Source: a virus (lineage: Duplodnaviria; Heunggongvirae; Uroviricota; Caudoviricetes). Taken from it: a stretch of DNA of 64,000 nt. Each line of letters begins with the position of its first letter. The stretch's first letter is position 1. The DNA lies in the IMG/VR virus record IMGVR_UViG_3300035208_005614, positions 1-64,000 of that record; one strand, written 5' to 3'. A program made the translations under genes and the position numbers. Shown one piece after another: positions 8,044 through 24,167 of this stretch. The notes under the pieces are model-generated. The model searched no databases and was not told the origin of the DNA. It was given only the letters and a program-made list of their open reading frames with translations.

Positions 8044-8071
8044 AGTATACTCCTATCTTTTTACTTGTCAA
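8044..8071 (-). promoter_or_regulatory. Sigma-70-like promoter TTGACA-N16-TATACT (consensus copy 1)
   Basis: Minus-strand reading cTTGACAagtaaaaagataggagTATACTta. Identical to the 20828 copy. The -35 box lies inside an ACTTGnCAAGT palindrome. Confidence 0.65.
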
Positions 8072-8095
8072 GTGAAAAGTCACTTGACAGACTCT

Positions 8096-9751
8096 TTACA
8101 TCATGTCGGGTTTATCTTTTGGTATTTCTGCCATAGCTACTTCTAGGGTTAGGAACATTCCTGCTCCACTAGAAGCATTTTCTAAGGCACATCTCTCTAC
8201 TTTCAATGGATCAATAATTCCACTTTCAATAAGATTATCAACAAAAACATTATTAAAGGCATCAAAACCGCCTCCATCTTCTTGATTTTTAACCTCATTT
8301 ACCACTTCCTCTCCATCTCCTAATCCACAGTTAATAGCAATGTGTTTTAAAGGTATCTCCATTGCTTTGGCAAGAATATCAAAACCTAGAAGCTCATCTA
8401 CCGTGTATTCACCCTCATTTTTGGCCTCTAAAACCCTCGTAGACGCATGAATTAATGAATATCCACCTCCTGGAACTATACCCTCCTCCAAAGCCGCTTT
8501 TACGGCATTTATAGCGTCTTCAACTTTTAGTTTAAGATACTTAGTTTCTGTGTCTGTTGAAGCTCCAACTTTGATTCTTGCAACACCACCAGAAAGTTTA
8601 GCAATTCTTTCCTCAACTTTAAGTTTGTCGTGCTTAGATTCGAGAGTTTCCATTTCTAATTTTGCGGTAGCAATACGCTCATCAATCTTAGTTTTATCTC
8701 CTTTCCCTCCGATAATTGTTGTCTTATCTTTTGTAGAAACAACTCTTTCGGCAGAACCTAGATGATCTAATCCCACTTTATCCATTGTCATACCTAAATC
8801 TTTTGATATAAATGTTGCACCAACTGTAATTGCTATATCTTCCAAATAATCTTTCTTTCTTAAACCGAATCCTGGAGCTTTAACTCCTAGAGTGATAAAT
8901 CCATTTTGGAATCTATTTGCAAGAACTGTTTGAAGAGCGTCTCCAACGATATCTTCAGCGATGATAACTAAATCTTGTTTCCCAGAGGCTTTTAATGCTT
9001 CCATGATCAAATAAACATCTTCAGCAGAACCGAGTTTCAAATCCGTAACTAAGATCGAAACATCTTTAACCACAGATTCTCCACGAGCTGGATCGGTCAT
9101 CATATATGGAGTTATAAAACCTTTATCTAATTCTAAACCTGAAGAAATTTCACTTGTAATTCCAACAACTGGACTTTCCTCCACTGTAATTATTGCATCT
9201 TGTCCTAATTCAGATACTGTCTTTGCAACAACTTTACCTATTTCTTCTGATTTCGAAGAAATGGTTGCAACACGAGTAATCTCTTCATTTCCATTTATTG
9301 GTTTAGAGATAGTTTTTAAGTAATCAACTGCAATCTTTGAAGCTTTATCTATACCAGATTTAACTCCAATAGAATTTACTTTTGCAGGTTTAAGAGAAAT
9401 CAATCTCAAAATCTTTGTCCATAAAGAACCTTTGATTAATTTCATTCCCTCAGTAGCAATAGCCTGATACAAAAGAATTGTGGTTTTTCTTCCATCTCCA
9501 GCGATATCATTTGTTTTTTGTGCTACTTCTTTTTCTAAATTTGCTCCAACATTCTGCATAGAATCTTTTAAAACAATCTCACGTGATATAGAACCGCCAT
9601 CTCCTGTTATTGTTGGTCCACCAAAACCACGATCAAAAACTACATTACGCCCCCTTGGACCTATTGCGGGTTTTATAGAATCACCAACTGCGTCTATACC
9701 GACTTTTAATTCCTTTCTTGCTTCCTCTCCAAATAAAATTCTTTTTGCCAT
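8096..9751 (-). CDS. groEL: Chaperonin GroEL (Cpn60)
   Basis: 551 aa. AKRILFGEEAR...GPRGRNVV..GDGTTT-like region...AVKAALEEGIVPGGG... The C-terminus ends in MM. Collinear with GroEL over its full length. Confidence 0.9.
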   Translation of the reverse strand: MAKRILFGEEARKELKVGIDAVGDSIKPAIGPRGRNVVFDRGFGGPTITGDGGSISREIVLKDSMQNVGANLEKEVAQKTNDIAGDGRKTTILLYQAIATEGMKLIKGSLWTKILRLISLKPAKVNSIGVKSGIDKASKIAVDYLKTISKPINGNEEITRVATISSKSEEIGKVVAKTVSELGQDAIITVEESPVVGITSEISSGLELDKGFITPYMMTDPARGESVVKDVSILVTDLKLGSAEDVYLIMEALKASGKQDLVIIAEDIVGDALQTVLANRFQNGFITLGVKAPGFGLRKKDYLEDIAITVGATFISKDLGMTMDKVGLDHLGSAERVVSTKDKTTIIGGKGDKTKIDERIATAKLEMETLESKHDKLKVEERIAKLSGGVARIKVGASTDTETKYLKLKVEDAINAVKAALEEGIVPGGGYSLIHASTRVLEAKNEGEYTVDELLGFDILAKAMEIPLKHIAINCGLGDGEEVVNEVKNQEDGGGFDAFNNVFVDNLIESGIIDPLKVERCALENASSGAGMFLTLEVAMAEIPKDKPDMM

Positions 9752-9753
9752 AC

Positions 9754-11451
9754 TTATTTTTTATATTTTAATTTCAAGCTATTAATATACTCATCTAACA
9801 TACTGTCCTCTTCTTCTGTTTCTTTTCCTTCAATTAATTGGTCTATAATTTCTTGTTTTCTAGACAAAAGTTTTTTCATAAAACCATCAATTGTCCCTTT
9901 ACTTATTATTTGATAAATGTTCAAACATTCATATTCTGCCCCTGGTCGGTGAGCTCTATTCTCACCTTGATCAAGATCTGCAGGATTCCAAGGAAGATCT
10001 AAAAAAATAACATTTGAAGCCGCGGTTAACGTAATTCCAACACCCGCGCTTCTTGTTCCTCCAAAGAAAATTTTACAGTTCGGATCTGTTTGAAACTTCT
10101 TTACCATCTCTCCTCTCTCGTCAATCGGAGTACTTCCAAGTAAAAGAACAGAATTTTCTTCATATTGATCCGCTAATTCCTGTAGAGGAGCATTGAAACT
10201 TGAAAAAACAATAACTTTTTCATCAGCTTCAATGATTCCGTCTATTAATTCTTTAGCAGTTGTAATTTTGCCCATAGCATTAATCTCTCTAAGAAGATTC
10301 AACTTAACCAATCTTTCGGCCGCCATTGATTTTAAGATTTGTTTATCTGTCTTATCTTTCTTATATGTTTTAAGATATTTAACTAAGTTTTCTTCAACTA
10401 ATTCATACTGAGTTCGCTCCGCTTCTGGCAAATCGATCGGAACTTCGACTCTATTTTTGGGTGGTAACTGGGAAAGAACTTCTTCTTTTGTTCTTCTAAG
10501 AAAATATTTACTTATCTTTTCTTTTAATTCTGCAAGATTTGTAGCTCCTTTCGCTTCAAACCCCCAATAACCTTGCTTGCCATCGCAATACTTCGTTGCA
10601 TACTGATAATAATTGTTCCATTTTTTAGGATCAATCATTGAAAGAACATTAAACATTTCTATAGGTCTTGAAAGAACTGGTGTTCCTGTCAACATGATTA
10701 TGTTTGGAATATTTCTAGCCAACAATTTTATAATTTTAGAACGTTGTGCAGTTGGTGATTTGATCAAATGACTTTCGTCACAAACCAAACAATCAAACTT
10801 ATACTTCATAAATTCATTATAAAACTTCTTTAATATATCATAATTTACTATAACGCAGTTAACATCAAAAGGTATAGATTCTAAATCTGTCTTTGGCTCT
10901 ACAACAAAAGATTTTAAATCTGTCCATTTCTCTATTTCACTCTCCCAAGCAAATTTTACAGAAGCAGGGCAAACAATTAAGCTTCTCTTGTGACCTACAT
11001 GGGTAATGTAACCTAAAGTCTGTGCCGTCTTACCGACACCAGGACTATCAGCCAGCAGAGCTCTCCCCCCACTATTTACTAAAAATTCAACTCCCAACTT
11101 TTGATATTCATACAAATTTCCTTTAATCCCTTTTACAGATATTGTAGAAACTGTAGACTCTTTAATTCTTTCAGCATTTTGTGCTTTCTCTTCTTCAACA
11201 ATAACGCTTTTTTCATATGATTCTAAATCGTTTTTAACATCAACATTAAATTCTAAACCTTCAAATTTTCCTTTTAAAACAGTAATTAGAGAAGGATCAG
11301 TAAAACGCCAGACTTTATTATCCGCATCCCAACTAAATTCTTTCCAACCGAGAGTATTTTTAAGATATTGACAATATTCAACGACAATGTCGTTGTATTC
11401 GCTCTCAAATGCGTATTCGTGATATTGTGTCTTCTCTTTTAATATTCTCAT
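9754..11451 (-). CDS. SNF2-family helicase/ATPase
   Basis: Walker A LLADSPGVGKTAQ, DESH box (CDESHLIKS) and helicase-C motifs (DLPWNPADLDQGENRAHRPG). An N-terminal region of about 110 aa is unassigned. Confidence 0.8.
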   Translation of the reverse strand: MRILKEKTQYHEYAFESEYNDIVVEYCQYLKNTLGWKEFSWDADNKVWRFTDPSLITVLKGKFEGLEFNVDVKNDLESYEKSVIVEEEKAQNAERIKESTVSTISVKGIKGNLYEYQKLGVEFLVNSGGRALLADSPGVGKTAQTLGYITHVGHKRSLIVCPASVKFAWESEIEKWTDLKSFVVEPKTDLESIPFDVNCVIVNYDILKKFYNEFMKYKFDCLVCDESHLIKSPTAQRSKIIKLLARNIPNIIMLTGTPVLSRPIEMFNVLSMIDPKKWNNYYQYATKYCDGKQGYWGFEAKGATNLAELKEKISKYFLRRTKEEVLSQLPPKNRVEVPIDLPEAERTQYELVEENLVKYLKTYKKDKTDKQILKSMAAERLVKLNLLREINAMGKITTAKELIDGIIEADEKVIVFSSFNAPLQELADQYEENSVLLLGSTPIDERGEMVKKFQTDPNCKIFFGGTRSAGVGITLTAASNVIFLDLPWNPADLDQGENRAHRPGAEYECLNIYQIISKGTIDGFMKKLLSRKQEIIDQLIEGKETEEEDSMLDEYINSLKLKYKK

Positions 11452-11456
11452 ACATT

Positions 11457-11672
11457 TTATTTCATTTTTTTATTATCCTTTAACTTTAAACCTTTTCTCT
11501 TAGATTCTTCAATCTCCTTAATCGCTTTTAAGGTTTTCTCAGAATCAAAAATATTCATTTTTCCCACTTTCGTAATAGGTTTAAGCAACCCGATTGAGAA
11601 ATAATAAGCCAACTTGCTCTTATTTATCCCCAATTCTATGGCTAGCTCTCCTAATGATGCCTGTTTATTCAT
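11457..11672 (-). CDS. Small HTH DNA-binding protein
   Basis: 71 aa. LGELAIELGINKSKLAYYFSIGLL resembles a MerR/Xis-type helix-turn-helix. First gene after the 11701 promoter. Confidence 0.5.
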   Translation of the reverse strand: MNKQASLGELAIELGINKSKLAYYFSIGLLKPITKVGKMNIFDSEKTLKAIKEIEESKRKGLKLKDNKKMK

Positions 11673-11700
11673 GATTATTTTTATTATTGATACTCTGTAA

Positions 11701-11728
11701 GTATACTCCTTTCTCCTTACTTGTCAAG
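11701..11728 (-). promoter_or_regulatory. Sigma-70-like promoter TTGACA-N16-TATACT (copy 2)
   Basis: Minus-strand reading cTTGACAagtaaggagaaaggagTATACTtac, between the Fic stop and the HTH gene start. Confidence 0.65.
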
Positions 11729-11734
11729 TAAGAT

Positions 11735-12292
11735 TTATCTAAACCATTTATAATAGTTCTTCTGTTCATCTCCCCCTTTATCATAATCAGCATGGATTAC
11801 TTCTATTGGAAGCCTATATTGAATGCGATGCCACAACATGATAAGTCTTCCAACACGACCATTTCCATCCTCAAAAGGATGAATATTTTCAAACTGAATA
11901 TGAGACGTTTTTACAACAGATTTAGGAGAAAGTGACTCATCTTGTGAATAAATTAATATATCTTTACAAAAATTTTCAAGATCATCATTTATCAATTGCC
12001 ATGAAATAAAGGGTTTAACGTGCCCCCCTATCCACACATCACAATTACGGTATCTTCCCGCTATATCTGGTCGAAGATCTTTCATTAGAATTTTATGAAT
12101 TTTAAGTATTTTATTAGGTGTTAAATATTTTTGATATTTTAAGTAATTCCATGCTTTTTTTGCCTGAATAAAAGGTTCTAATCCCTCAACTCTTTCAATT
12201 GAATTTGATTCTCTGATAAAATCATCTATATTTTTGTTTCTTGTTGCTCTCTTTTTTAACTTTTGTTTTTTCATATCATTAATTTTTTTCAC
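11735..12292 (-). CDS. Fic/Doc-family protein (AMPylation-type enzyme)
   Basis: Canonical Fic motif HPFEDGNGRVGR. Confidence 0.8.
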   Translation of the reverse strand: MKKINDMKKQKLKKRATRNKNIDDFIRESNSIERVEGLEPFIQAKKAWNYLKYQKYLTPNKILKIHKILMKDLRPDIAGRYRNCDVWIGGHVKPFISWQLINDDLENFCKDILIYSQDESLSPKSVVKTSHIQFENIHPFEDGNGRVGRLIMLWHRIQYRLPIEVIHADYDKGGDEQKNYYKWFR

Positions 12293-12632
12293 AAAATAAC
12301 TCTACTGTGATATTTTTATAAATTCCTATTGACATATTTGTATAATTAGGTTTTAGTATATTTGCTCGATGTGTTGGAGAATCCATAAGAGCTTTCTCCT
12401 CTGAAATAGCACTAGGATAATTCTTTGCTAGATTCTCCCCTATATAATCACAATCCAAATTAACAAATGAATTTTTCCATCCTAAATGAGACCACTGTCC
12501 TGTATCATACAAATACTTTGCTCTTACTCCTGCCATTTGTGCCATCTGTGGGTACGTCTGAAGAGGGGCTAAATTTGCTCTAGCTCTATCATTGTTTGTC
12601 AGCATAAATAATAAGAGTAATTGTGATATCAT
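12279..12632 (-). CDS. CAP/SCP/PR-1 (YkwD-like) domain protein
   Basis: GENLAKNYPSAISEEKALMDSPTHRANILKPNYTNMSIGI matches the CAP-domain C-terminal motifs (GEN..., W..S.GHR.NIL...IG). Hydrophobic N-terminus. Confidence 0.6.
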   Translation of the reverse strand: MISQLLLLFMLTNNDRARANLAPLQTYPQMAQMAGVRAKYLYDTGQWSHLGWKNSFVNLDCDYIGENLAKNYPSAISEEKALMDSPTHRANILKPNYTNMSIGIYKNITVELFCEKN

Positions 12633-12931
12633 TTTATTAGTTTTTTATAATCCCTAATACAAATTGGTAGGTGGTCATTCTTTCTTTTACTTAAAAAGTC
12701 TAAAGAATATTCATAATACTCAAACATTTGCTTTCTTGAGTATTTATAACGAACAAAATCTACCATATCTGTCATATTAAAGAAATAATCATTAATATGA
12801 TAAACTCCTCCAACTTCATTTGCTACCCACCAACGTTCATTATCTTTGCCGAAGTATTTTATTGCAAAATACACAGCAAAATCATTTGTATACCACTCCC
12901 AATTCTCTAAAAATTGATTAATTTTTTTCAT
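12629..12931 (-). CDS. Hypothetical protein
   Basis: 100-aa ORF overlapping both neighbours by 4 nt (ATGA-type coupling). Confidence 0.4.
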   Translation of the reverse strand: MKKINQFLENWEWYTNDFAVYFAIKYFGKDNERWWVANEVGGVYHINDYFFNMTDMVDFVRYKYSRKQMFEYYEYSLDFLSKRKNDHLPICIRDYKKLIK

Positions 12932-13290
12932 TTTGTTTTTACAATTAGATTTTTATCCGCCATTCCAAAAGAAACTTCATCGTCAAAAGCAATATCGACT
13001 TGACCGTGAATAGTGTCATCATATTCGGCTTTTCCAAAACACTGATCTACCCACTTTTCTAAGCCAAATTTTAACACTATTTGCTCTGCGTATTCCTTAC
13101 CACCACCACTCCAAACATAGATCTTGCAATTTTTAATATGTTCATGAAGCAATTCCATAAGTTGAACTGTTCTCAAGTTCAATACTGGTTCAGCTTTATA
13201 CATGAATGGTGATCCATATATTGTTCCGTCTACGTCAAACGAGATGATAATTTCTTTCATATTTTTATCTCCTACCGTAATAGTAGGCAA
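12928..13290 (-). CDS. HAD-superfamily phosphatase-like protein
   Basis: ISFDVDGTI matches HAD motif I (DxDGT). Confidence 0.5.
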   Translation of the reverse strand: MPTITVGDKNMKEIIISFDVDGTIYGSPFMYKAEPVLNLRTVQLMELLHEHIKNCKIYVWSGGGKEYAEQIVLKFGLEKWVDQCFGKAEYDDTIHGQVDIAFDDEVSFGMADKNLIVKTK

Positions 13291-13513
13291 TTAAATTTTG
13301 TAATTTTAACTTTTTCGACTTTTCTTCTTTTTCTGTGGAATCCTCCACAACTGCTGTCTCCCATTCTTCTTTAGAATAATAACTAACGGGTTGCATTTGT
13401 GGACGTGCCATTTGTACCTGGGAGGCTAGAATGGTTCTTTCCCAATCTTTTATGCGGTTCTCCCTTATACGCATCTCCTCCTGATAACTATTCGTATAAG
13501 CCATGAGAGTCAT
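13265..13513 (-). CDS. Hypothetical protein
   Basis: 82-aa ORF in the operon string. Confidence 0.35.
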   Translation of the reverse strand: MTLMAYTNSYQEEMRIRENRIKDWERTILASQVQMARPQMQPVSYYSKEEWETAVVEDSTEKEEKSKKLKLQNLIAYYYGRR

Positions 13514-13514
13514 G

Positions 13515-13934
13515 TTATTTAACTATATGAACGGTATTCTTCCCGACTAGACCATCAACTAACTTATTTAGAATATCCTTCATGTCTTTAACATCAAAAC
13601 CTAGATTTTCGAAAGCTTTGGTCAAGATTTCTGCTTCTTTTGTTTTGTTATTTAGATTCATCTTCAACTCAGCATTTTCTTTAGTCAAAACCTTTGTTGC
13701 TTCTGCTACTTTATTTTCCAATTCTAAATCTTTTCTAGTAACAATAATCTCATTATCTTTAGCGAGATTATCTGCTTTTTTCTCCAATCCTTCAATCTCT
13801 TCTCTATGAATCTTACCTTGTCTTTCTATTTTTTCTTCATACTCCTTAACTATTTGTCCTTCTCTTTCCTTGCTCTTATTTGCATCTGCTTTTTCAAGCA
13901 AATCATTATATGTTTTATCTGATAAAAATTTCAT
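13515..13934 (-). CDS. Hypothetical coiled-coil protein
   Basis: 139 aa, K/E-rich heptad-like. The antisense ORF 13582-13809 is low-complexity. Confidence 0.4.
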   Translation of the reverse strand: MKFLSDKTYNDLLEKADANKSKEREGQIVKEYEEKIERQGKIHREEIEGLEKKADNLAKDNEIIVTRKDLELENKVAEATKVLTKENAELKMNLNNKTKEAEILTKAFENLGFDVKDMKDILNKLVDGLVGKNTVHIVK

Positions 13935-13935
13935 T

Positions 13936-14250
13936 TTATTGGTATCTTGCGATACATTCCTGTATCATTTTACTCTTATAATTTTCGTCTTCGCACTGTT
14001 TTTTTGCCTCAGTATTTGTGATCGATCCACAAATATCTGAATCTTTTCCTGTATCAACCACAGGTTCATCTGGTTCTGGAATATATGCTACTGCGGTCTG
14101 ATTAAATCCACTAACTTTGGTTGATGTAGTAGTCGAATTTGCTTTATTTTTTGCTCTAGCACTTTCAATACTCGCCATCACTACTGATGAAAAAATACCT
14201 ATAATTGCTATTACAACCAACATTTCTATTAACGTAAAACCTTTTTTCAT
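13936..14250 (-). CDS. Type IV pilin-like protein (prepilin N-terminal cleavage/methylation domain)
   Basis: N-terminus MKKGFTLIEMLVVIAIIGIFSSVV is the class-III signal (G|FTLIE) followed by a hydrophobic helix. Confidence 0.7.
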   Translation of the reverse strand: MKKGFTLIEMLVVIAIIGIFSSVVMASIESARAKNKANSTTTSTKVSGFNQTAVAYIPEPDEPVVDTGKDSDICGSITNTEAKKQCEDENYKSKMIQECIARYQ

Positions 14251-14251
14251 T

Positions 14252-14512
14252 TTATTTTTTTATATACCACGCTTTTAATCTAGGTAGATTATCTAAGACC
14301 AACCTTATCTGCTCCTTAGTAATCTTGCCTTGTCCTATCCCGTCTTGTAAAAGAACTACGATAGCTCTTTGAGTTAATTGAGACTTCTGAAGTTTTTCGA
14401 ATCCTTCAGAAACTGAAATTATGCTTTGAGCTAAAAGTTCTATCGACTCGGGATTCTCTTCATTCTTGACTACTCTAATATTTTGTTTTCCCATATTATT
14501 TTGTCTCTTCAA
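14252..14512 (-). CDS. Hypothetical protein
   Basis: 86-aa ORF tightly packed between neighbours. Confidence 0.4.
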   Translation of the reverse strand: MKRQNNMGKQNIRVVKNEENPESIELLAQSIISVSEGFEKLQKSQLTQRAIVVLLQDGIGQGKITKEQIRLVLDNLPRLKAWYIKK

Positions 14513-14646
14513 TTGCTAAAAGAATCTTTTCTGCCACAGCACTAAGAAGAATTCCATCATGTGCCTTATTTGGAACACAGAATTCTCTTAAAACCGCTAT
14601 TATTTTTTCTTTTTTTTCTTCATTCATAATTTTAATTTATTAATTA

Positions 14647-15159
14647 TTAATCTCCCCACGAACCTGAATCACTACTTGAATAACTATCGCTACCCCATGA
14701 TCCTGAATCACTTCCCCAAGATCCTGAATCGCTACTTGAATAGCTATCGCTACCCCATGATCCTGAATCACTACCCCACGAAGTATCGTCTACTGCACTA
14801 CTTTCGTCTCCCCAACTTCCCCAAAAACTATCGTTTGACTTACTTCCACTTCCCCAAGATCCAGAATTACTATCTGAATTACTTGTTGTTTGACTAGGAG
14901 CAGAATCACGATAGGTAGTATTATTGTAATAAGTATTACCTCTTGATCCTCCAAAAAGCCACATCCAGAAAAACGGTTCATACGAGTTGTTCTGCGGTTG
15001 CGATTGAACAACGACATTTGTCGTTGTTCCTGCAACTGTAGTGGAAGAAACATTCTTAGCCGCCTTAAACATCGGAACGAAAGCTAGTACAAGAAATATT
15101 GCGACTAGAATAGAACCGATAACTAAGATTGCCTGTAAATTTTTATGTCTTTCCCACAT
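14647..15159 (-). CDS. Membrane-anchored protein with a Ser/Gly/Trp/Asp-rich repeat tail
   Basis: N-terminal TM segment (ILVIGSILVAIFLVLAFVP). C-terminal SGSWGSDS repeats are encoded by a 57-bp tandem DNA repeat at about 14650-14790. Confidence 0.55.
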   Translation of the reverse strand: MWERHKNLQAILVIGSILVAIFLVLAFVPMFKAAKNVSSTTVAGTTTNVVVQSQPQNNSYEPFFWMWLFGGSRGNTYYNNTTYRDSAPSQTTSNSDSNSGSWGSGSKSNDSFWGSWGDESSAVDDTSWGSDSGSWGSDSYSSSDSGSWGSDSGSWGSDSYSSSDSGSWGD

Positions 15160-15163
15160 ATAA

Positions 15164-16081
15164 TTATTTTAATTGGATTACTGGAATCGTGTTTCCTCCC
15201 ATCATCGTTGATGGATAATGTCCGTCCCATTGCTTGATTGCTTGTAATGCTACGTAATCAGCTCCTCCTTGTGAGTTTATAGCTTGTGCTGAAATTCTTA
15301 TCGCTTCTGCATCTGCTTTTGCTTTTTCTACTGTTTGCTGTGCTTCATATTGAACTTGAACTAATTTGTTCTTTTGAGCTTCAGCGTCTTGAACTGCTGT
15401 AACTTTAGCTTCAATTGATTTGCTAAATGCATCTGAGAAAGCAAAGTTTGTAACTGAGAATCTTTCCATAACTGCATTCTTTTCAACAAATTGTGTTGCA
15501 AGTAAAGCATTTACTTTGTCTGAGAATTCTGCTCTTTTTGTAACCAATTCTTCTGCTGTGTATTGAGCTGATGTAGATTTAACTATTTCTCTAATCATCG
15601 GTTCAATAACATTTGCTTGATAATTCTCTACTGAACTATATTGAGAGAATATTTCTGTTACTTTTGTTGCATCTACGTGATAATTTACAACTACTCCAAT
15701 TGCTACATCCTGAAGATCTTTTGATGCTCCAAAAAGATTTGTAGATTGATTTTTCTCATCTCCTGTATCTCCGCTCTTATCGTAATCAATTGTTTGAGTC
15801 TTAACGCTCATCAAATGAATTGATTCTAACCATGGGAGTTTGAAATAAAGTCCTGGTTGAACTGTACCTACTACCTTACCTAGATTTGTTTTAACTCCTA
15901 CTTCTCCAGCACTAACTGTACCAAATGATCCGAAGATTGTTGGTAATGCGATAAATAAAGTAATAAAAGCAATTGCTATATGTGTAATAACTTTTGCTAG
16001 ATCTACTTCAGTACCGTAATCTGTTTTCATTGAATAATCGAACATTCCTCTTTTTTTATTTTCCATTTTTATATTTTTCAT
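15164..16081 (-). CDS. SPFH/band-7 (prohibitin/HflKC-like) domain membrane protein
   Basis: N-terminal TM (IAIAFITLFIALPTIF) followed by GEVGVKTNLGKVVGTVQPGLYFKLPW, a band-7-like core, then a long A/Q/E-rich coiled-coil tail. Confidence 0.7.
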   Translation of the reverse strand: MKNIKMENKKRGMFDYSMKTDYGTEVDLAKVITHIAIAFITLFIALPTIFGSFGTVSAGEVGVKTNLGKVVGTVQPGLYFKLPWLESIHLMSVKTQTIDYDKSGDTGDEKNQSTNLFGASKDLQDVAIGVVVNYHVDATKVTEIFSQYSSVENYQANVIEPMIREIVKSTSAQYTAEELVTKRAEFSDKVNALLATQFVEKNAVMERFSVTNFAFSDAFSKSIEAKVTAVQDAEAQKNKLVQVQYEAQQTVEKAKADAEAIRISAQAINSQGGADYVALQAIKQWDGHYPSTMMGGNTIPVIQLK

Positions 16082-16436: not shown

Positions 16437-16467
16437 GTATAAATTACTAGTTATAATATAAAATAAT

Positions 16468-16782: not shown

Positions 16783-16836
16783 TTCTATGTTGTAACATAG
16801 AAATGTCTTTGACATATTAAGAAAAAGGAATATTAT
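16783..16836 (+). promoter_or_regulatory. Operator-like palindrome plus sigma-70-like promoter upstream of the replication genes
   Basis: Palindrome TTCTATGTT-GT-AACATAGAA (16783-16802) followed by TTGACA-N16-TATTAT (16809-16836). Confidence 0.5.
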
Positions 16837-16979: not shown

Positions 16980-17858
16980 ATGAAATATAATATCAATATA
17001 AATCAAAAAGCATTGAGCGAATTAAGCGACGATATGGACGTCTTAGATGCCTCTATTTTGGTTTATATTAATGATATTTGTGGCAGTGGCAGTGAAAAAA
17101 TACACAGTAGAAGATTTAAGGATGAAAACGGTATATTTTGGACATGGGTTGATCTACAAACCTTATGCGACGATATGCCTCTTCTTCGTATTGGATCTAG
17201 ATCAGCTATTTCAAATAGAATCAAAAGAATAGAAAAAAACGGTTTTATTTCTACTTTAACAAGAATGGTGGATCGTCATTCTCGTTTATTTATAAAGCTA
17301 AATGACAAGGTAGATAATCTCACGTTCGTGGAAAAGAACGTGTCAGTTGTTGACACGTTCTCCAAAACAAACGTGTCGAGGGGGGACACGTTCTGTTTGG
17401 AGAACGAGCACGTTCTCCTAGAAGAACGTGTGGAGGATTCACACGTTCTCCAAAACGCACGTATTATAGATACTAGTAATACAATACATAATAATACTAC
17501 TTACTCTGTGCAAAAAGGGAGGACGAGGAAAAAAGACATTCCTATGGATTCTGATAGGTTGTCTCTATTCAACGACTTCTGGGCAGCGTTTCCGATTAAG
17601 AAAGGGAAACAACTTGCGGAAGCACGTTGGAAAGAAATTGATATTGCCATAATGCCAATGATTATCGAGGATGTAAAAAAGAAGAGCATAAAGGATGATC
17701 AATGGATTAGAGGGTACGCTCCCCATCCCCCAACTTATTTAAATCAAAAACGATGGACAGACGAAATTGATCCCCCCAAGACGACAGCCCCTAAACTAGC
17801 TCCAGGAAATACTTATACAAAAGGAAAAATGAAAGATGTCGAAGAATTAATTGTTTAA
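16980..17858 (+). CDS. Putative replication initiator/replisome organiser carrying an internal origin-like palindrome array
   Basis: 292-aa ORF immediately upstream of the DnaC-like and primase-helicase genes. No closely recognisable domain. It contains a DNA palindrome array (see the repeat feature), as in the lambda O gene and its origin. Confidence 0.5.
   Translation: MKYNININQKALSELSDDMDVLDASILVYINDICGSGSEKIHSRRFKDENGIFWTWVDLQTLCDDMPLLRIGSRSAISNRIKRIEKNGFISTLTRMVDRHSRLFIKLNDKVDNLTFVEKNVSVVDTFSKTNVSRGDTFCLENEHVLLEERVEDSHVLQNARIIDTSNTIHNNTTYSVQKGRTRKKDIPMDSDRLSLFNDFWAAFPIKKGKQLAEARWKEIDIAIMPMIIEDVKKKSIKDDQWIRGYAPHPPTYLNQKRWTDEIDPPKTTAPKLAPGNTYTKGKMKDVEELIV
17321..17448. repeat. Array of five palindromes built on GAACGTG/CACGTTC half-sites (origin-like iterons)
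   Basis: CACGTTC-8-GAACGTG (17321-41), GAACGTGTC-8-GACACGTTC (17335-60), AACGTGTC-7-GACACGTT (17370-92), GGAGAACG-AGCA-CGTTCTCC (17399-418) and GAACGTGTG-7-CACACGTTC (17424-48), all inside the 16980-17858 reading frame. Confidence 0.7.
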
Positions 17859-17877
17859 AAATATAATATAAAATAAA

Positions 17878-18429
17878 ATGAAATTAGATTACACAAAAAT
17901 AATACCGAGGAGATACCACGACGTTTCATATGAAAATGACGTTACGGATGTGGTGAAAGGAGTAGTTAAGGAACAGATTCAAAAAAGAGACGGTTTATAT
18001 ATCCGTGGAGATGTAGGAGTAGGGAAAACTCACTTGGCCTGTGCTTTAGTTAAAAAATTTATAGAGGAGGGTCTTGATGTAAGGTTCTATAACACAAGTG
18101 ATTTTTTAGAGAGACTTAGAGACGAGTTTAAGAACGGAGTTATTACCGATGAGAGTTCTGAAGGGTTATTCAGAGATACGATGAATTATAAAGGGATTCT
18201 TGTTTTAGACGACATAGGGACAGAGAAAGTGACCGATTGGGTCAACGAAAGACTTTATCTCATTATAAACAAAAGATATGAGGATATGCTTCCCACGATT
18301 TTTACTTCAAATTGCGATATGGAAACCTTTTCAGCGAGATTAGGAGATCGATTTTCATCTAGAGTAAAGCAAATGACTAGAATTATTAACCTTGTCCACT
18401 CAGACAGAAGATTAACTCCAAAACTCTAA
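17878..18429 (+). CDS. DnaC/IstB-like helicase loader ATPase
   Basis: Walker A RGDVGVGKTHLA, Walker B ILVLDDIG and sensor TSN. 183 aa. Confidence 0.8.
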   Translation: MKLDYTKIIPRRYHDVSYENDVTDVVKGVVKEQIQKRDGLYIRGDVGVGKTHLACALVKKFIEEGLDVRFYNTSDFLERLRDEFKNGVITDESSEGLFRDTMNYKGILVLDDIGTEKVTDWVNERLYLIINKRYEDMLPTIFTSNCDMETFSARLGDRFSSRVKQMTRIINLVHSDRRLTPKL

Positions 18430-20192
18430 TGAAAACTATAAATGAAAAATTGTTAAATTTCGCGTTAGAGTCTCTTAAAAAAGGAATTTCAGTTATTCCT
18501 GTAGGTAAAAACAAAATTCCGCTTTTATCATGGAAAGTTTATCAAACTCGTTTCGCGTCAGAAGAAGAAGTTAGAGGATGGTTCGAAGGATATGACGATC
18601 CTCAAATAGGTTTTGTTACAGGAAAGATATCAAATCTTCTGGTTATTGATATTGAAAAAGGAGGGGATCCTAGTTTTCTTCCACAAGATACAACGATAGT
18701 TCACACGGGAGGAGATGGATATCATTACTACTTTAAATTTGAAGATGGAATTATGAATAAGGCTAGAATCAAACCCCTTATAGATTGGAGAGGAGAAGGA
18801 GGTTATGTAGTTTCACCGTATTCAGTTTCAGAAAAAGGACCCTATACGATTCTTCAAGACTTGCCATGGTTACCATTTCCTAAGGAATTATTTCCGCCTA
18901 AAGTAGATATTTTCCAATCCCCAGGATTGAATAGCGCCAGAGTTTTTGAAAGAAGACCGATCGTTGAATACCCAGGTTATGGAACAGGACAAAGAAATGA
19001 TCAGATGGCGAGATACATTGGTTATTTGTTAACACAATTACACCCTGCAGATTGGGATACCCAAGGTTGGAATATTATTTTAACTGCTAATCAAAAAAAT
19101 ACACCGCCATTAGCACAAAATGAGCTCCTTACAACGTTTAATAGCATAAAAGGTGTTGAGAGACGTAATAACCCATTCGGGCGCGCTGGCGGGGCAAATA
19201 CCTCCCAAAACACGTACGCTTCAAGCACTTTTCAAGAGAACCCAGTAATTCTAAATGATGGAAGTGACGAAATTAAACATCTTGCCGAAGTTGCCGATGA
19301 ACAGGTTATAAATCAAGAAGATATTTATCCACTTCAAATGAAATGTTTTGATGATGTTATTTTAGGAGGAGTCTGCCCTGGAGATCTTGTTGTTATCGCA
19401 GGACAGTCGGGACATGGAAAAACATCTCTTGCACAGGACTGGACACTTTCTTTTGTCCGTGGTGCAAAAAAGGCAAAGAGCCTTTGGTTCTCTTATGAAG
19501 TTTTACCAACCCACTTGTGGAAAAAGTTTCAAGAAATGGGAATGAGTAGAGAAGACTGCGTTTTTATTCCCTCAAAGAACACTTCGGGTAATGTCGCTTG
19601 GGTAGAACAAAAGATCAAGGAAGGTAAGGAAAAATTTGGAATCAAGGTAGTTATGATCGACCACTTAGGGTTTCTATTACCCAAGACAAATGGCACTTTA
19701 GGAATGAAAAATATGTCAAGCAATTACTCAACATTTTTGACACAGGTTGTGAGAGATTTGAAGACTATAGCTTTGAAGGAAGAAGTTATAATCTTTTTGC
19801 CAGTTCACATGAGAAAGGCGGAGAAAGGAAATAGAAAATCTGATATTGATGATATTAAAGATTCTTCTGGTGTAGCACAGGAATCAGATCTAGTATTTTT
19901 AATTGAAAGAGAAAAAAATAAAGATACAAATGCAAGGTCATATTTTACAGATAAAACCAAAATTACTTTAGCTAAGAATAGAAAAACTGGAACAACTATT
20001 ATTGGGAACTTCTCTATGGTTAAAGGAAGATTCGCTTATGACGATACTTATGACAAGAATTTAGAAGCTTTTGAGAAATTTGGAGAAGAAAAACCTCCAG
20101 AACCAGTAAAGGTCGCAAGATATTACGATACTCCCGATAGTGAGATAGACGAAGATATCACTTGGGAGAGAACTAAAGAAGTAGAAGAATAA
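18429..20192 (+). CDS. Primase-helicase (N-terminal bifunctional prim-pol domain plus C-terminal DnaB/RepA-like RecA-fold helicase)
   Basis: N-terminus ISVIPVGKNKIPLLSWKVYQ...LLVIDIEKGG...HTGGDGYHYYF...GGYVVSPYS matches the primase/polymerase N-terminal domain. C-terminus has GDLVVIAGQSGHGKTSLA (Walker A) and VVMIDHLGF (Walker B). Confidence 0.8.
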   Translation: MKTINEKLLNFALESLKKGISVIPVGKNKIPLLSWKVYQTRFASEEEVRGWFEGYDDPQIGFVTGKISNLLVIDIEKGGDPSFLPQDTTIVHTGGDGYHYYFKFEDGIMNKARIKPLIDWRGEGGYVVSPYSVSEKGPYTILQDLPWLPFPKELFPPKVDIFQSPGLNSARVFERRPIVEYPGYGTGQRNDQMARYIGYLLTQLHPADWDTQGWNIILTANQKNTPPLAQNELLTTFNSIKGVERRNNPFGRAGGANTSQNTYASSTFQENPVILNDGSDEIKHLAEVADEQVINQEDIYPLQMKCFDDVILGGVCPGDLVVIAGQSGHGKTSLAQDWTLSFVRGAKKAKSLWFSYEVLPTHLWKKFQEMGMSREDCVFIPSKNTSGNVAWVEQKIKEGKEKFGIKVVMIDHLGFLLPKTNGTLGMKNMSSNYSTFLTQVVRDLKTIALKEEVIIFLPVHMRKAEKGNRKSDIDDIKDSSGVAQESDLVFLIEREKNKDTNARSYFTDKTKITLAKNRKTGTTIIGNFSMVKGRFAYDDTYDKNLEAFEKFGEEKPPEPVKVARYYDTPDSEIDEDITWERTKEVEE

Positions 20193-20196
20193 AAAA

Positions 20197-20409
20197 ATGA
20201 GTAGACCAGAACATTTAAATTGTGTGAATACTGTTGAGGGGATAAGAAGAATTAATGAAGAACAAAGAGAATATGATAAAGACCCCGAACAATATGAAAG
20301 AAGAGAAAGAGAAATTAAAGAAGAGAGAGAAAGAGAGCAAGAACAAGAAAGACAAGATTATTTAGAACAGGAAAAAATATTAGAAGATAACGAACAAAAT
20401 TATGGATGA
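20197..20409 (+). CDS. Small Glu/Arg-rich coiled-coil protein
   Basis: 70 aa with ERREREIKEEREREQEQERQ low complexity. Confidence 0.4.
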   Translation: MSRPEHLNCVNTVEGIRRINEEQREYDKDPEQYERREREIKEEREREQEQERQDYLEQEKILEDNEQNYG

Positions 20410-20644
20410 AAAATCAATTAGAGAATTTTTAGAAGAATTAGATCCTGATAATAAAATCCCTGAAGATAGAAAAGAAGATTTTATTCAGGAAGTTATTTAC
20501 AGAGAAGCACACCCTATTCCTGACGGAACAGTTATTGATGGAATAACATATTCCACATTAGAAGAACAAATGGCAAACGAAACGGACTGGAGAAAAAAAG
20601 CGTCGATCGCAGCCCGAATTATTAGTAAGAGATTAGAAGAATAA
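20402..20644 (+). CDS. Hypothetical protein
   Basis: 80-aa ORF overlapping the upstream gene by 8 nt. Confidence 0.4.
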   Translation: MDEKSIREFLEELDPDNKIPEDRKEDFIQEVIYREAHPIPDGTVIDGITYSTLEEQMANETDWRKKASIAARIISKRLEE

Positions 20645-20646
20645 CA

Positions 20647-20838
20647 ATGTACGAAGACAATGAATGTCCTACAGGTAAAAAGATTTATGATAAAAAAGGA
20701 GCAACAACATTAAAAAATAAAACGATGGAATTGCATCATATTGAAATGCGAATATATCCTTGCCCGAGATGTAATGGGTGGCACCTAACAAGCGTCGGGA
20801 AGCATAAACCGTTTAGACACTGTAAACTTGACAAGTAA
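20647..20838 (+). CDS. Small Cys-containing (zinc-ribbon-like) protein
   Basis: 63 aa with CPTGK...CPRCNGWH. The stop codon overlaps the -35 box of the 20828 promoter. Confidence 0.4.
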   Translation: MYEDNECPTGKKIYDKKGATTLKNKTMELHHIEMRIYPCPRCNGWHLTSVGKHKPFRHCKLDK

Positions 20839-20855
20839 AAAGATAGGAGTATACT
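20828..20855 (+). promoter_or_regulatory. Sigma-70-like promoter TTGACA-N16-TATACT (copy 4)
   Basis: cTTGACAagtaaaaagataggagTATACTtaa on the plus strand, identical to the 8044 copy. Confidence 0.65.
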
Positions 20856-20861
20856 TAAAAG

Positions 20862-21105
20862 ATAGTTGATTGATTTCTGGGGTTTGGCGTGTCATCTAGA
20901 TTGCTTCCGCATCGCTAAGGTGGCCCGTCAAAGGAAGTCCTCAGACGTCAATCAATTATCTGTGCGAATCGGTAGTTGTGTCCGTGATTTGAAGGTCCAG
21001 TAACTCTCTGCCACGCTTCGCGCTGGTTTAAAGTCTGGCGTAAGGAAATCGACCCGCCTTTGAATCGTGGGCTCAACTACTGAAAATTATTAGTTTAAAA
21101 GAAAA
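20862..21105 (+). ncRNA. GC-enriched structured leader or candidate ncRNA (about 245 nt)
   Basis: No ORF. Markedly GC-richer than the flanking sequence (GGGGTTTGGCGTGTC ... GCCACGCTTCGCGCTGG ... CGACCCGCC), with many short GC stems. Transcribed from the 20828 promoter ahead of the 21111 gene. Confidence 0.4.
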
Positions 21106-21110
21106 TAACA

Positions 21111-21896
21111 ATGGAAATAAAAATATTTGGAAAGAGTTTGTTTAAGTTTAGTAAAAATGAAGCATTATTTGTGGGTATTAATTCATCAATGAAAGAAAGT
21201 AAATATCTTCCTGATTTTTACGGCAGATCATTTGGTGGAGGAAGTATGAGTATTGAAAATGTCATATCTTCATCTTTTGCAACAGAATTAGCTGGAACAG
21301 GGGCAGTTACAAAATATGCAGAGACAAAAAAGGAAGAACCTGCTAAAGAAAAAGAAAAAATAACACCAAAAGGAGTTTATAATTTACAAATGTTGAATGA
21401 TAAGAGTTTTAAATTAAAAGTTGAACCGACCTACCTTGACAACTTAATTCAGTCTTTCAAGGATAAATTGTCTCTAATTAAATCTGAAGAATATGATATG
21501 AGAAATGGTACTCAAGAAATTGCAAGTATTCTTATGAGACTAGAAAATAGAAAAAAGTATAGCGATCATAAGAAAATGTTTGAGGAATTCCCATATACTA
21601 CAACAAATAAGATAAATGAATTGGTTAAGGAACACGATCATTTAAAGATAGGACAAGTTGCAGAATTTATGGCTGATATGCCAAAAGAGGCAATTGATGT
21701 TATGAAGAAATATAATAAAGAAGTTGATTTGCTTTGTAAAAAGCAAGCAGTATTCTATATTATTGCAAACAAAGAAGATTTCAAGAAAACAGAGAAGAGA
21801 AGAGATCCAATACTTTTGGCACAATCACCATTCGGTCACTTCTGGCAGATACTTGGAGCTTGGGATGAAGAAATGATGTTAATCGAAGAATTATAA
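21111..21896 (+). CDS. Hypothetical protein
   Basis: 261-aa ORF. Confidence 0.5.
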   Translation: MEIKIFGKSLFKFSKNEALFVGINSSMKESKYLPDFYGRSFGGGSMSIENVISSSFATELAGTGAVTKYAETKKEEPAKEKEKITPKGVYNLQMLNDKSFKLKVEPTYLDNLIQSFKDKLSLIKSEEYDMRNGTQEIASILMRLENRKKYSDHKKMFEEFPYTTTNKINELVKEHDHLKIGQVAEFMADMPKEAIDVMKKYNKEVDLLCKKQAVFYIIANKEDFKKTEKRRDPILLAQSPFGHFWQILGAWDEEMMLIEEL

Positions 21897-21902
21897 AAAA
21901 AT

Positions 21903-22214
21903 ATGGAAAAAGAAAAATCACTAGGATATAGTTTGTTTGTAGACGAAGATATGAATGATCTTTTAGTTCTACTTTGCAACCTATATTCTATGGCAGAAGA
22001 GAGTGGACTCTTCGAAAAATATCCACCAGATGATAGTTTGAAGATACAGTTAGCGTTTATGAGATTATTAAAAAATGCAGTCGAACCTGCCCACAAGCTA
22101 GGTTGGTGCAAAGACCCAGATTGCGAATGGGTTGATAAAGATAAAAAAGATGACAAAAATAACACAAACAAAGATGGGAAGAGCAAAAATGATAAAAAAG
22201 ACGGTAACAAATAG
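21903..22214 (+). CDS. Hypothetical protein with a Lys/Asp-rich tail
   Basis: 103-aa ORF. The last 30 aa are KD-rich low complexity. Confidence 0.4.
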   Translation: MEKEKSLGYSLFVDEDMNDLLVLLCNLYSMAEESGLFEKYPPDDSLKIQLAFMRLLKNAVEPAHKLGWCKDPDCEWVDKDKKDDKNNTNKDGKSKNDKKDGNK

Positions 22215-22383
22215 ATTAGGTAAGAAAGAAGTTGGAAGAATTACAGGATATGAACCTTGTACTCCAAGGAAAAATGTAAGTGATCCCAAAACTTACAAAA
22301 CAGCGTTAGTATCAGAAGGTCAAATTATCAACTGGGGTAAAAGAGAAAGAAAAGAAACCCGAAAGTTAATGAAACAATTATAA
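22132..22383 (+). CDS. Hypothetical basic protein, start uncertain
   Basis: Its stop (TAA) overlaps the recA ATG (TAATG), suggesting translational coupling. Its 5' part overlaps 21903-22214 in another frame, so the true start is probably an internal Met. Confidence 0.35.
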   Translation: MIKIKKMTKITQTKMGRAKMIKKTVTNRLGKKEVGRITGYEPCTPRKNVSDPKTYKTALVSEGQIINWGKRERKETRKLMKQL

Positions 22384-23399
22384 TGAAAAAAGAAAAAAAA
22401 GAGGTAGAAGAAGTTAAGACGGATAAAGTGGAAGATGCATTAGCAAGACTTCAAAAGAAGTATGGTGCTGATGTTCTTATGCAAATGGATAAAAATATTG
22501 ACTTCAAAGTAGATTGGCTTTCAACAGGATGTTTTTCTTTAGATGATCTTATCGGAGGAGGAATTCCTAGAGGAAGAATCATTGAAGTTTTTGGAGCAGA
22601 ATCAGGAGGTAAGAGTACCTTATCATTATTCATTATGGCACAAATTCAAAAGCAAGGAGGTAGAGTCGCATTGATTGATGCTGAAAATGCTTTTGACGGA
22701 TCTTATGCTGCTAATATTGGGTTAGATGTATCAAAGTTGATGGTTTCTCAACCAACCTCTCTCGAAGAATCAATGGATATCATTAAGGAACTTGTAGAGA
22801 CAAGTATGATAGATATCATCGTTGTCGACTCTGTGAGCGCCCTAGTGCCCAAATCAGAGGTTGAGGGAGAAGATTTTATGAAGGATACGATGGCTATTCA
22901 AGCGAGACTTATGAGTAGAGCATTAAGAATTCTTTCAGGACCTATATCTAAATCAAAAACAGTGGTTATCTTTATCAATCAAATTAGAGATAAAGTAGGA
23001 GTTTTCTTTGGAGCCAAAACAACAACCAGTGGAGGAAGAGCATTAAAATTCTTCAGTTCAGTTAGGCTTGAAGTTTCAAAAGGTTCTAAAATAGAAAAAG
23101 GAGATGTTCAAATCGGTAATGAGATTATAGTTACAGCAGTTAAAAATAAGGTGGGATTCCCATGGAAGAAAACTAAACTAGATCTTTATTATGCAAAAGG
23201 AATAGATCTTTATGCAGATACCTTGGATTTTGCTGAAAAACTTGGAATTGTAACTCAAAAAGGAGTAACATATTATTTTAAAGAAGCTGGAATAGGGGTA
23301 GGAAGAGATAAGGCAAAAAAATTCCTTATTGATAATGAAGAAACTTTCAAACTTATTCAAGAAGAAATAAAGAAAAATATATGTCCAACAAAATCATAA
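22383..23399 (+). CDS. recA: Recombinase RecA
   Basis: GGGIPRGRIIEVFGAESGGKSTLSL...ALIDAENAFD...IVVDSVSALVPKSEVEGE is collinear with E. coli RecA ([24 protein letters not shown]...FIDAEHALD...VVDSVAALTPKAEIEGE). Confidence 0.9.
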   Translation: MKKEKKEVEEVKTDKVEDALARLQKKYGADVLMQMDKNIDFKVDWLSTGCFSLDDLIGGGIPRGRIIEVFGAESGGKSTLSLFIMAQIQKQGGRVALIDAENAFDGSYAANIGLDVSKLMVSQPTSLEESMDIIKELVETSMIDIIVVDSVSALVPKSEVEGEDFMKDTMAIQARLMSRALRILSGPISKSKTVVIFINQIRDKVGVFFGAKTTTSGGRALKFFSSVRLEVSKGSKIEKGDVQIGNEIIVTAVKNKVGFPWKKTKLDLYYAKGIDLYADTLDFAEKLGIVTQKGVTYYFKEAGIGVGRDKAKKFLIDNEETFKLIQEEIKKNICPTKS

Positions 23400-23605
23400 A
23401 AAATATTAAATTCCTTATCAAGGCGATAGATAGAGGATATGGTCATAATTGTGAAGATGTTTGTTGGGATTGCCCATGTTGTAAAGCACATCATCTTCAA
23501 GACGGTTTAAGATGGATGTTAGAATTAGAAGAGTTTGGAGAACAATGTAAGAAAACTAAATTTAAACAAAAAAATGTTAAATCAAGGAGAAAAAACAATA
23601 AATAA
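23381..23605 (+). CDS. Hypothetical Cys-rich small protein
   Basis: 74 aa with CEDVCWDCPCCKAHH. Overlaps the recA end and the next ORF. Confidence 0.3.
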   Translation: MSNKIIKNIKFLIKAIDRGYGHNCEDVCWDCPCCKAHHLQDGLRWMLELEEFGEQCKKTKFKQKNVKSRRKNNK

Positions 23606-24119
23606 AAAAATATATGCTTTGCTTTTAGAATCAAGCAAGACTTATTTTTTGAGTGTGCAATCTGCCTATTCTTTAGAGGATGCATTTCTTTTAGCCAAGA
23701 TAGAGTTCGCAAAACTTAATCCTTTATCAAAAGGAGAAAATTCATTGGAAGGAGCAAAGATAGGTTTATTCTCGATCAAAACTGTAGAGGAACTTAACTC
23801 ACAAAATTCAGATAAAATTACTTCAGTTGATAGTGCTATTCAAACACAAGAGGAAACGTCTTCTGGAAGAACAGTAAAGATCGGTCAGGTAGACCCTGAA
23901 GACTTTCTAAAAATATTGGAAGAGGGTTTTCTTCCAAAAACAAGGAAGAGTGATATTAAAAAGATAATTCCTAAGACGCCTCCAGAAGAAGAACCTAAAA
24001 CCAAGAAGAATAAATTAATGTTAGAAATCATCAAAAGTAAAGATAAAAGAATCCTAGAAATGAATAAGGAGCTTTTTACTCCTGAAGAAATCAAATATAT
24101 TGAAAAACAGATGGAATAA
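23535..24119 (+). CDS. Hypothetical protein
   Basis: 194-aa ORF. Confidence 0.45.
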   Translation: MENNVRKLNLNKKMLNQGEKTINKKIYALLLESSKTYFLSVQSAYSLEDAFLLAKIEFAKLNPLSKGENSLEGAKIGLFSIKTVEELNSQNSDKITSVDSAIQTQEETSSGRTVKIGQVDPEDFLKILEEGFLPKTRKSDIKKIIPKTPPEEEPKTKKNKLMLEIIKSKDKRILEMNKELFTPEEIKYIEKQME

Positions 24120-24139
24120 TCTGTCAAGGTATTATTTAC

Positions 24140-24167
24140 TTGACAAGTAAAATAGAAGGAGTATACT
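24140..24167 (+). promoter_or_regulatory. Sigma-70-like promoter TTGACA-N16-TATACT (copy 5)
   Basis: cTTGACAagtaaaatagaaggagTATACTtac on the plus strand, upstream of 24232. Confidence 0.65.

Follow-up and report, generated by a model that had tools for sequence, protein, structure and literature searches.

A recurrent sigma-70-type promoter with a symmetric −35 box, and its candidate MerR-like reader, in an uncultivated tailed phage

Five copies of a single promoter-like element are carried by positions 1 to 64,000 of IMG/VR virus record IMGVR_UViG_3300035208_005614, a virus of the Caudoviricetes; this whole stretch of 64,000 nucleotides (nt) is referred to below as the window. The element joins a near-consensus sigma-70 core to an 11-bp symmetric box centred in its −35 hexamer. 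The five copies (P1 to P5, Table 1) and a weaker sixth are very probably strong promoters read by the host RNA polymerase with its primary sigma factor. The bases around the −35 hexamer may add an operator layer whose most probable reader, put forward here tentatively, is a phage-encoded MerR-like protein of 71 amino acids (aa). Taken jointly, a promoter core combined with a MerR-like operator layer is a rather probable explanation of the element. Recognition by the host sigma factor, the timing of expression and the binding of a protein are features that we infer from nucleotide sequence.

Anatomy and conservation of the promoter core

A search of the window for ACTTGACAAGT-N9-GGAGTATACTT gave five exact matches, with 0 expected and none in 100 shuffles, and a tolerance of up to three mismatches added no further match. 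The element is 31 nt long, and 22 of its 22 specified positions are the same in all five copies; each box taken singly is also over-represented. Every copy consists of TTGACA (6/6) as the −35 hexamer, a 16-nt spacer and TATACT (5/6) as the −10 hexamer, which amounts to 11 of the 12 positions of the sigma-70 consensus. The −35 hexamer always lies inside the 11-bp symmetric box ACTTG-A-CAAGT. A preliminary description of this DNA had reported the same element at five sites, and exactly these five were recovered, the second 28-mer being located at 11700-11727 and not at 11701-11728. The symmetric box and a GGAG at the end of the spacer had been noted in every copy; this holds within the window, whereas GGAG is weakly conserved in relatives (0.3-0.55 bit at each position). 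That the −10 box AGTATACT is an 8-bp palindrome in its own right had not been mentioned. The identity of P1 (8043) and P4 (20826), which stand in inverted orientation, is real and includes the spacer, extending over 34 nt (ACTTG...CTTAAA) and not over the 31 nt first given.

All copies are oriented with the genes downstream of them, as originally described. Four lie fully outside coding sequence, either 5-22 nt past the upstream stop codon or within a divergent gap, but P4, which had likewise been called intergenic, overlaps with its first 13 nt the last four codons and the stop of an open reading frame (ORF) at 20647-20838. In a generic scan of positions 6500-26400 for sigma-70-like sites, the top six consisted of the five copies and of a weaker site at 16809-16836(+), TTGACA-16-TATTAT, which agrees with the earlier estimate of five or more. 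No convincing terminator-like site was found upstream of any copy in the same interval. Four of the five thus lie inside arrays of co-directional genes, as internal promoters, and are not the isolated operon heads formerly supposed; the divergent gap is occupied by the 16367 copy (P3) only.

The copies are confined to a module of replication, recombination and host takeover (3.4-31.6 kb), in accordance with the proposal of a dedicated promoter class. The genes of this region encode GroEL, GroES, an SNF2 helicase, a replication initiator, a DnaC-like loader and a primase-helicase, together with UvsX/RecA, SbcCD, a Fic protein, a pilin-like protein and a peptide deformylase. No copy occurs in 31.6-60.5 kb, in the tRNA run or in the 7.5 kb past the right end of the window; the scan covered the 64-kb window and about 8.5 kb of flanks, about 1 kb of which is the leftward extension. 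The early or middle timing that had been proposed for the class is one that we infer from this gene content.

The promoter core is widely shared by relatives. On a 97-kb IMG/VR contig whose UvsX is 82% identical, the element is present at all five syntenic sites, where ACTTGCCAAGT, TATAAT for TATACT, and AGAG, TGAG or AAAG for GGAG occur as variants. Further relatives were gathered without use of the motif, by a UvsX search, a GroEL alignment and an SNF2 alignment against metagenomes (80 loci); a search for related loci gave none for the SNF2 protein among viral contigs and none for GroEL among genome contigs. Their promoters were located through a conserved RNA (P1-type), the MerR-like gene (P2-type), the DUF5659 gene (P3-type) and homologues of a 215-aa gene (P5-type), which yielded 58 distinct instances. 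The search criterion within syntenic positions was a 5/6 match to TTGACA, owing to which the relatives give no independent test of the closeness of the −35 hexamer to consensus. Both hexamers are kept in these 58 promoters. The spacer measures 16 nt in 28 of them, 17 in 22, 18 in 4, 19 in 3 and 15 in 1, while the fifth position of the −10 hexamer is occupied by C in 21 promoters and by A in 33, so that TATACT and TATAAT alternate. At the centre of the −35 box, 54 of the 58 have A and 2 have T, which indicates that the box is read directionally. Copies of the P1-type, located via the downstream RNA alone, are found in 11 of 14 lineages; P2-type copies lie upstream of MerR-like genes, P3-type copies lie opposite DUF5659 genes, and at P5-type sites ACTTGACAAGT precedes homologues of the 215-aa gene down to 27-31% protein identity. 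The hexamers alone are retained in distant relatives.

A flexible spacer, the drift to TATAAT and an oriented −35 box are predictions of recognition by sigma regions 4 and 2 and argue against a rigid phage-polymerase site. All sequence properties thus agree with the primary sigma-70/sigma-A type that had been suggested. Independent support is given by the structured RNA that follows P1: in 8 of 12 lineages the first position of its model falls 2-12 nt past the −10 hexamer, where a transcript would be expected to start. Motifs of a similar kind also stand before a tRNA gene and a 23S rRNA gene in bacterial genomes, which favours a promoter function. In the proposed mechanism, the host primary-sigma holoenzyme would read TTGACA, the 16-nt spacer and TATACT, thereby firing the replication, recombination and host-takeover blocks, and four of the copies, none of them preceded by a terminator, would act as internal boosters.

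The symmetric −35 flanks and their candidate reader

The conservation of the element extends beyond the hexamers. With the first T of TTGACA taken as position 0, the 58 promoters of relatives show A at −2 in 40 (0.72 bit), C at −1 in 50 (1.21 bit), A at +6 in 51 (1.28 bit), G at +7 in 49 (1.17 bit) and T at +8 in 50 (1.21 bit). The spacers of the same copies are randomised whereas the flanks are kept, and conservation declines about symmetrically from the centre of the box, with both arms of the dyad preserved. Judged from these alignments, the flanks are clearly under selection in this phage clade. An outer pair, GTCAAGT-N8-ACTTGAC, with centres about 15 bp apart, is added in some P1- and P5-type copies only. 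Besides the window, GTCAA occurs at the 15-nt offset in five P1-type lineages (L120, L153, L138, L133 and L158), and in the P5-type loci L040 and L144 it lies upstream at an offset of 13-14 nt.

A candidate reader of the symmetric box is encoded by the first gene after P2, which had been overlooked in the preliminary description. This MerR-like winged-helix protein reaches 23.9 bits against Pfam MerR_1 (cut-off 21.6), and no other family membership was detected for it at sequence level. Its AlphaFold model has a predicted local distance difference test score of 88.5, and Foldseek matches the model to MerR-family DNA-binding domains and to the short members GlnR, TnrA and RacA. The gene is found upstream of SNF2 in many relatives and is absent in others. 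In loci that possess it, the AGT flank accompanies 50 of 84 TTGACA promoter-like sites, 36 of which carry the full 11-mer (duplicates removed); in loci that lack it, the flank accompanies 1 of 21 sites and the full 11-mer none (Fisher 3e-6, a figure not corrected for phylogeny). In a rough SNF2 tree, two clades having both the gene and the flank are separated by two clades without the gene, whose sites read cTTGACAaa(t/a), a pattern which suggests that gene and flank changed together at least twice.

That a phage factor binds the symmetric box, as had been proposed, is plausible from the pattern of conserved bases. The extra bases, namely the flanks of the box and, in P1- and P5-type copies, the inverted GTCAAG 15 nt upstream, would form an operator for a conserved phage DNA-binding protein. 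The MerR-like protein would autoregulate its own operon via P2 and would govern all promoters of the class together, repressing or co-activating them at the −35 region. A more doubtful extension is that so minimal a protein, of 71 aa, without a dimerisation helix and conserved in a large clade of phages of about 100 kb that may infect bacteria of the candidate phyla radiation (CPR)/Patescibacteria, recognises a box coinciding with the −35 hexamer, the hexamer and AGT being co-read with host sigma region 4. If this is true, one protein would control an entire class of promoters, including the one that launches a new family of structured RNA.

Several points weigh against the assignment to the MerR-like protein. 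The co-occurrence was read on a rough neighbour-joining tree and may represent only about two events, or a host switch. The centres of ACTTG and CAAGT are 6 bp apart, a distance ill-suited to a classical helix-turn-helix dimer, and the protein is devoid of the long dimerisation helix of its family. The full box is also carried by a 23S promoter of Paceibacterota. With a CPR host only suggested, a sigma preference of the host lineage could also explain the flanks; and about 30 kb of the genome, outside the scan, could encode a phage sigma factor or RNA polymerase.

The main rival to the MerR-like operator, possible but on the whole rather unlikely, is accordingly that these are plain host promoters and that AC...AGT is an extended −35 preference of host sigma region 4, the symmetry being incidental since TTGACAA is already a 7-bp near-palindrome. 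The strong orientation of the central −35 base is in its favour, as is the persistence of C at −1 in clades without the MerR-like gene. It is also favoured by bacterial promoters. When 185,579 species genomes were scanned for ACTTGACAAGT-N11-AGTATACT, five matches were obtained: two in Desulfobulbaceae at the same tRNA promoter (L118 1760-1789 and L121 1455-1484, 26 nt 5' of the tRNA gene), one in Planctomycetota and two in Paceibacterota. One of the latter (L120) belongs to a related phage, a fragment of which had been binned with a Paceibacterota genome, but the other (L122 5516-5545) is the extended motif 324 nt upstream of 23S-5S rRNA genes, a promoter of the form ACTTGACAAGT-N-GAGTATACTT with no phage context. 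Against such a preference, TTGACA-AGT-N11-GAGTATACT has 27 matches in IMG/VR, all of them in contigs unrelated to the clade, while a control with the permuted flank TGA has 33, which shows that promoters in general do not favour AGT. Via a CPR-specific neighbour gene, four more CPR genome loci were obtained. A syntenic promoter before 23S was identifiable in two of the four (TTGACAtct-16-TATAAT and TTGACAgcc-17-TATACT), both with canonical hexamers but without the flanks, and none of about 15 other promoter-like sites in the four loci has AC or AGT; the sample is small, and the CPR host itself is uncertain. Finally, the flanks are lost together with the MerR-like gene in sister clades.

The hints as to the host point to CPR/Patescibacteria and comprise the phage fragment binned in Paceibacterota, the origin of several SNF2-derived loci from groundwater 0.1-µm filter fractions labelled 'Hain', and a type IV pilin-like protein encoded at 13936-14250 (−); the loci concerned are L120, L122, L142, L149, L150, L156, L166, L168 and L183. 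A CPR (Paceibacterota) host is suggestive only.

A further role, additional to the promoter function and not alternative to it, is that the cassettes serve as boundaries of recombination and of modules, in the manner of the promoter-early stem-loops known from T4-like phages, which is unlikely but would explain both their homogenisation and the variable gene content. P1 and P4 are the same even in the spacer, and the closest relative, L133/L134, has TATAAT at P2 and P3 where the window has TATACTT; these two facts suggest that the uniformity of the five copies is derived, by recent homogenisation. The insertion of a MucR-like gene after P1 and the lack of the P3-P2 block in L125 also accord with a boundary role. 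On the other hand, 31-34 bp is short for homologous exchange.

It is very unlikely that the element only mimics the sigma-70 consensus and in fact serves an RNA polymerase or sigma factor encoded by the phage, of the T7 or the SPO1 gp28 type. Strict identity at 22 of 22 positions recalls the promoters of phage polymerases, and room for such an enzyme exists in two giant ORFs without assigned function and in the roughly 30 kb outside the scan. However, the element agrees with the consensus at 11 of 12 positions and is correctly spaced, the spacer varies between 16 and 18 nt in relatives that keep both boxes, TATACT drifts to TATAAT, and neither a polymerase gene nor a complete sigma gene was detected in the window.

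Still less credit can be given to the original proposal that host sigma-70 is aided by a dimer of either a MucR-like or a sigma-region-4-like protein on ACTTGnCAAGT. Both genes are indeed present. The MucR-like one (6897-7769; Pfam ROS_MUCR 38.6 bits) lies directly downstream of P1, as an insertion between the P1 RNA and a conserved 147-aa gene, but it was not found in the closely examined relatives (L133/L134, L126, L123, L124, L125 and L120), all of which keep the motif. The sigma-region-4-like one (29512-29955) scores 19.1 bits against Sigma70_r4, below the Pfam cut-off of 24.1, and is absent from L038, the sole examined relative that spans the position, in which SbcC abuts the deformylase gene; L038 belongs to a genome that keeps all five promoter sites. 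Moreover, MucR/Ros proteins bind AT-rich DNA with low specificity and not short palindromes. Neither gene is supported as a conserved partner. Where a clade has no MerR-like gene, the place directly upstream of SNF2 is taken by a zinc-ribbon ORF similar to MucR-like proteins (L160 771-1265, L167 1272-1784), and in L149/L150 a MucR-like ORF (L149 6030-6209) follows the P1 RNA, as in the window. From their positions, the MucR-like genes look like mobile, interchangeable regulators within the clade.

A promoter of the N4 kind, with the inverted repeat extruded as a DNA hairpin or cruciform for a virion polymerase to read, is hardly credible: an inverted repeat is present and giant ORFs exist in the window, but only 4-7 pairs can form, the folding energy is −0.7 to −4.1 kcal/mol (four copies), three of four copies do not differ from shuffles, P3 stands out through pairing of the −35 flank with the −10 box and not through the palindrome, and arm changes in relatives, such as AGTTGACAAGT and TCTTGACAAGT, are never compensated (compensatory covariation of the palindrome bears on hairpin models only, not on protein binding).

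Transcribed leaders, a second promoter class and genome context

The promoters are followed by several structured or conserved leaders. In the three-way-junction RNA after P1, compensatory changes are seen at 18 of 22 pairs, and the fraction of paired cells is 94.7% as compared with 34-50% when the partners are slid. It consists of an 11-13-bp closing stem, a hairpin with an AAUAAnCAAUA loop, a hairpin with a GAAA loop and the junction CUGUUAAAC; no Rfam match was obtained, even at a permissive E-value. The RNA is present in L126, L127, L120, L123/L141, L124/L153, L125/L152 and L133/L134, and also in L135, L138, L145, L146, L149/L150 and L158. It is downstream of the GroEL gene wherever the context was examined, and in most relatives a gene starts 25-40 nt past it. 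From this arrangement, it may be a cis-regulatory leader.

The leader after P4 is unusually GC-rich and contains two long hairpin domains. No Rfam match was found for it at E<=5, and no homologue was found in the loci of relatives that were searched. In the P5 leader (24169-24231, +), a deeply conserved AAGGTCGA stands just past the predicted start, and AGTTAA repeats then continue as far as the start codon; syntenic counterparts exist in L040, L144, L136, L176, L191, L185, L164, L178 and L188. The arrangement recalls the leader through which T4 gene 32 is autoregulated, but no family match was obtained for the 215-aa protein.

A second class of promoter-like sites, G(G/T)ACT(A/G)TGnTAnnAT, is an extended −10 motif without a −35 box, with 6 matches in the window against 0.42 expected. 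It is located ahead of putative structural genes, the tRNA array and the DUF5659/replication block, and it is kept upstream of DUF5659 genes in relatives. The idea that this class is strictly late was dropped because one copy heads the DUF5659 and replication genes.

Table 1. Positions of the promoter copies and of associated features in the window
Feature	Position	Strand	Description
P1	8043..8073	(-)	−35 TTGACA 8071-8066; −10 TATACT 8049-8044; starts 22 nt past GroEL stop; predicted output: structured RNA, then MucR-like/GroES gene block (-)
P2	11699..11729	(-)	27 nt 5' of MerR-like gene; then SNF2 helicase and GroEL genes
P3	16367..16397	(-)	Divergent gap; leftward block of small ORFs, lipoprotein-like, pilin-like, CAP and Fic genes
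P4	20826..20856	(+)	Followed by 254-nt structured leader and genes 21111-23399, incl. UvsX/RecA
P5	24138..24168	(+)	Heads 215-aa gene, SbcCD and downstream genes
Weaker sixth copy	16809..16836	(+)	TTGACAtat-N-TATTAT, 16-nt spacer, without symmetric flanks; ahead of replication-initiator gene 16980
GTCAAGT element upstream of P1	8082..8088	(-)	Exactly 15 nt before ACTTG; inverted copy of ACTTGAC
GTCAAG element upstream of P5	24123..24128	(+)	15-nt offset as in P1
MerR-like winged-helix protein, 71 aa	11457..11672	(-)	First gene after P2; candidate reader of symmetric box
Three-way-junction RNA, ~80 nt	7957..8034	(-)	Starts 10 nt after P1 −10; covariance-model score 85 bits
P4 leader RNA	20857..21110	(+)	254 nt, non-coding; minimum free energy −96.4 kcal/mol, z = −7.25
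Extended −10 class	16424-16436(+), 44421-44433(-), 50373-50385(-), 60517-60529(-), 61578-61590(-), 5208-5220(-)
Extended −10 class, also	62205-62215(-), 63793-63803(-)

The window has a GC content of 34%. Its stretch from 31.6 to 60.5 kb contains large genes that are nearly without database matches, among them ORFs of 2390 aa (31653-38825, −) and 2680 aa (52468-60510, −), and is probably a block of structural genes. No significant Pfam, PHROG or PDB sequence match was obtained for these two giant ORFs, nor for most of the large genes near them. An array of 15 tRNA genes occupies 61595-63783 on the minus strand. At 3085-3387, between the genes 2596-3084 and 3388-4545, a 303-nt gap free of ORFs is fairly GC-rich and includes a TGTATAAT-like box. 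The identical MerR-like protein is encoded on a contig of 101,237 bp; the full genome is therefore probably of about 101 kb, of which about 30 kb falls outside the scan. Megablast of positions 8000-25000 against the INPHARED phages gave no match, and tblastn of the UvsX and GroEL proteins gave at most 46% identity, which indicates that there is no close cultured relative. A literature search for the motif string and for CPR phages found nothing relevant.

Significance and comparison with known systems

About 80 related loci from groundwater, sediment and other metagenomes provide a first sequence-level view of the transcription signals of a large uncultivated phage clade, the host of which is possibly a CPR bacterium. 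The clade uses canonical −35/−10 promoters and, in addition, the second, extended −10 class. A testable pair of regulator and operator is proposed, namely the MerR-like protein and ACTTGACAAGT. The promoter copies are landmarks for the annotation of such genomes, and through them a new structured RNA with good support came to light.

Phages are well known both for early promoters that are reused with little departure from consensus and for operators in many copies, and the reuse of one element is not surprising in itself. The early promoters of T4, T5 and SPO1 likewise place many near-consensus −35/−10 sites before early blocks and show conservation beyond the hexamers. In the present phage, by contrast, the bases conserved in addition make up an 11-bp dyad whose centre is the fourth base of the −35 hexamer, the promoters are predicted ones, and they belong to a system with an uncultivated host.

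The C1 operators of phage P1, the gp71 stoperators of mycobacteriophage L5, the conserved inverted repeats of phiC31 and the OR/OL operators of lambda, all of which overlap promoters, each consist of one repeated site with one regulator for the class, and here too the flanks co-occur with one regulator gene. Unlike in those systems, neither an integrase nor anything else that would point to lysogeny was seen in the window, and the putative site coincides with the −35 hexamer itself. In Bacillus, the short MerR-family regulators TnrA and GlnR recognise inverted repeats that lie on or beside the −35 region, and the predicted model of the 71-aa protein superposes on their DNA-binding domains with a template-modelling score of about 0.8. 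TnrA sites have the form TGTNA-N7-TNACA, whereas the candidate half-sites here are ACTTG and CAAGT spaced by 1 nt, or GTCAAGT-N8-ACTTGAC.

In the T4 MotA/AsiA system, a phage factor reads DNA at −35/−30 while the normal −10 is kept, as is proposed here. In T4 middle promoters, however, the MotA box replaces the −35 hexamer, which in the present element is a perfect consensus, and no homologue of MotA or AsiA was seen. The early hairpin promoters of N4 also have a short inverted repeat within a conserved phage promoter, but here the hairpin is weak, compensatory variation is missing and the core is the sigma-70 consensus. As far as the DNA allows a judgement, the element is of an ordinary kind, a phage promoter that probably doubles as an operator. 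What makes it interesting is that the −35 box is extended symmetrically throughout a clade, that this extension is associated with a minimal MerR-like protein, and that its study gave the by-products described above.

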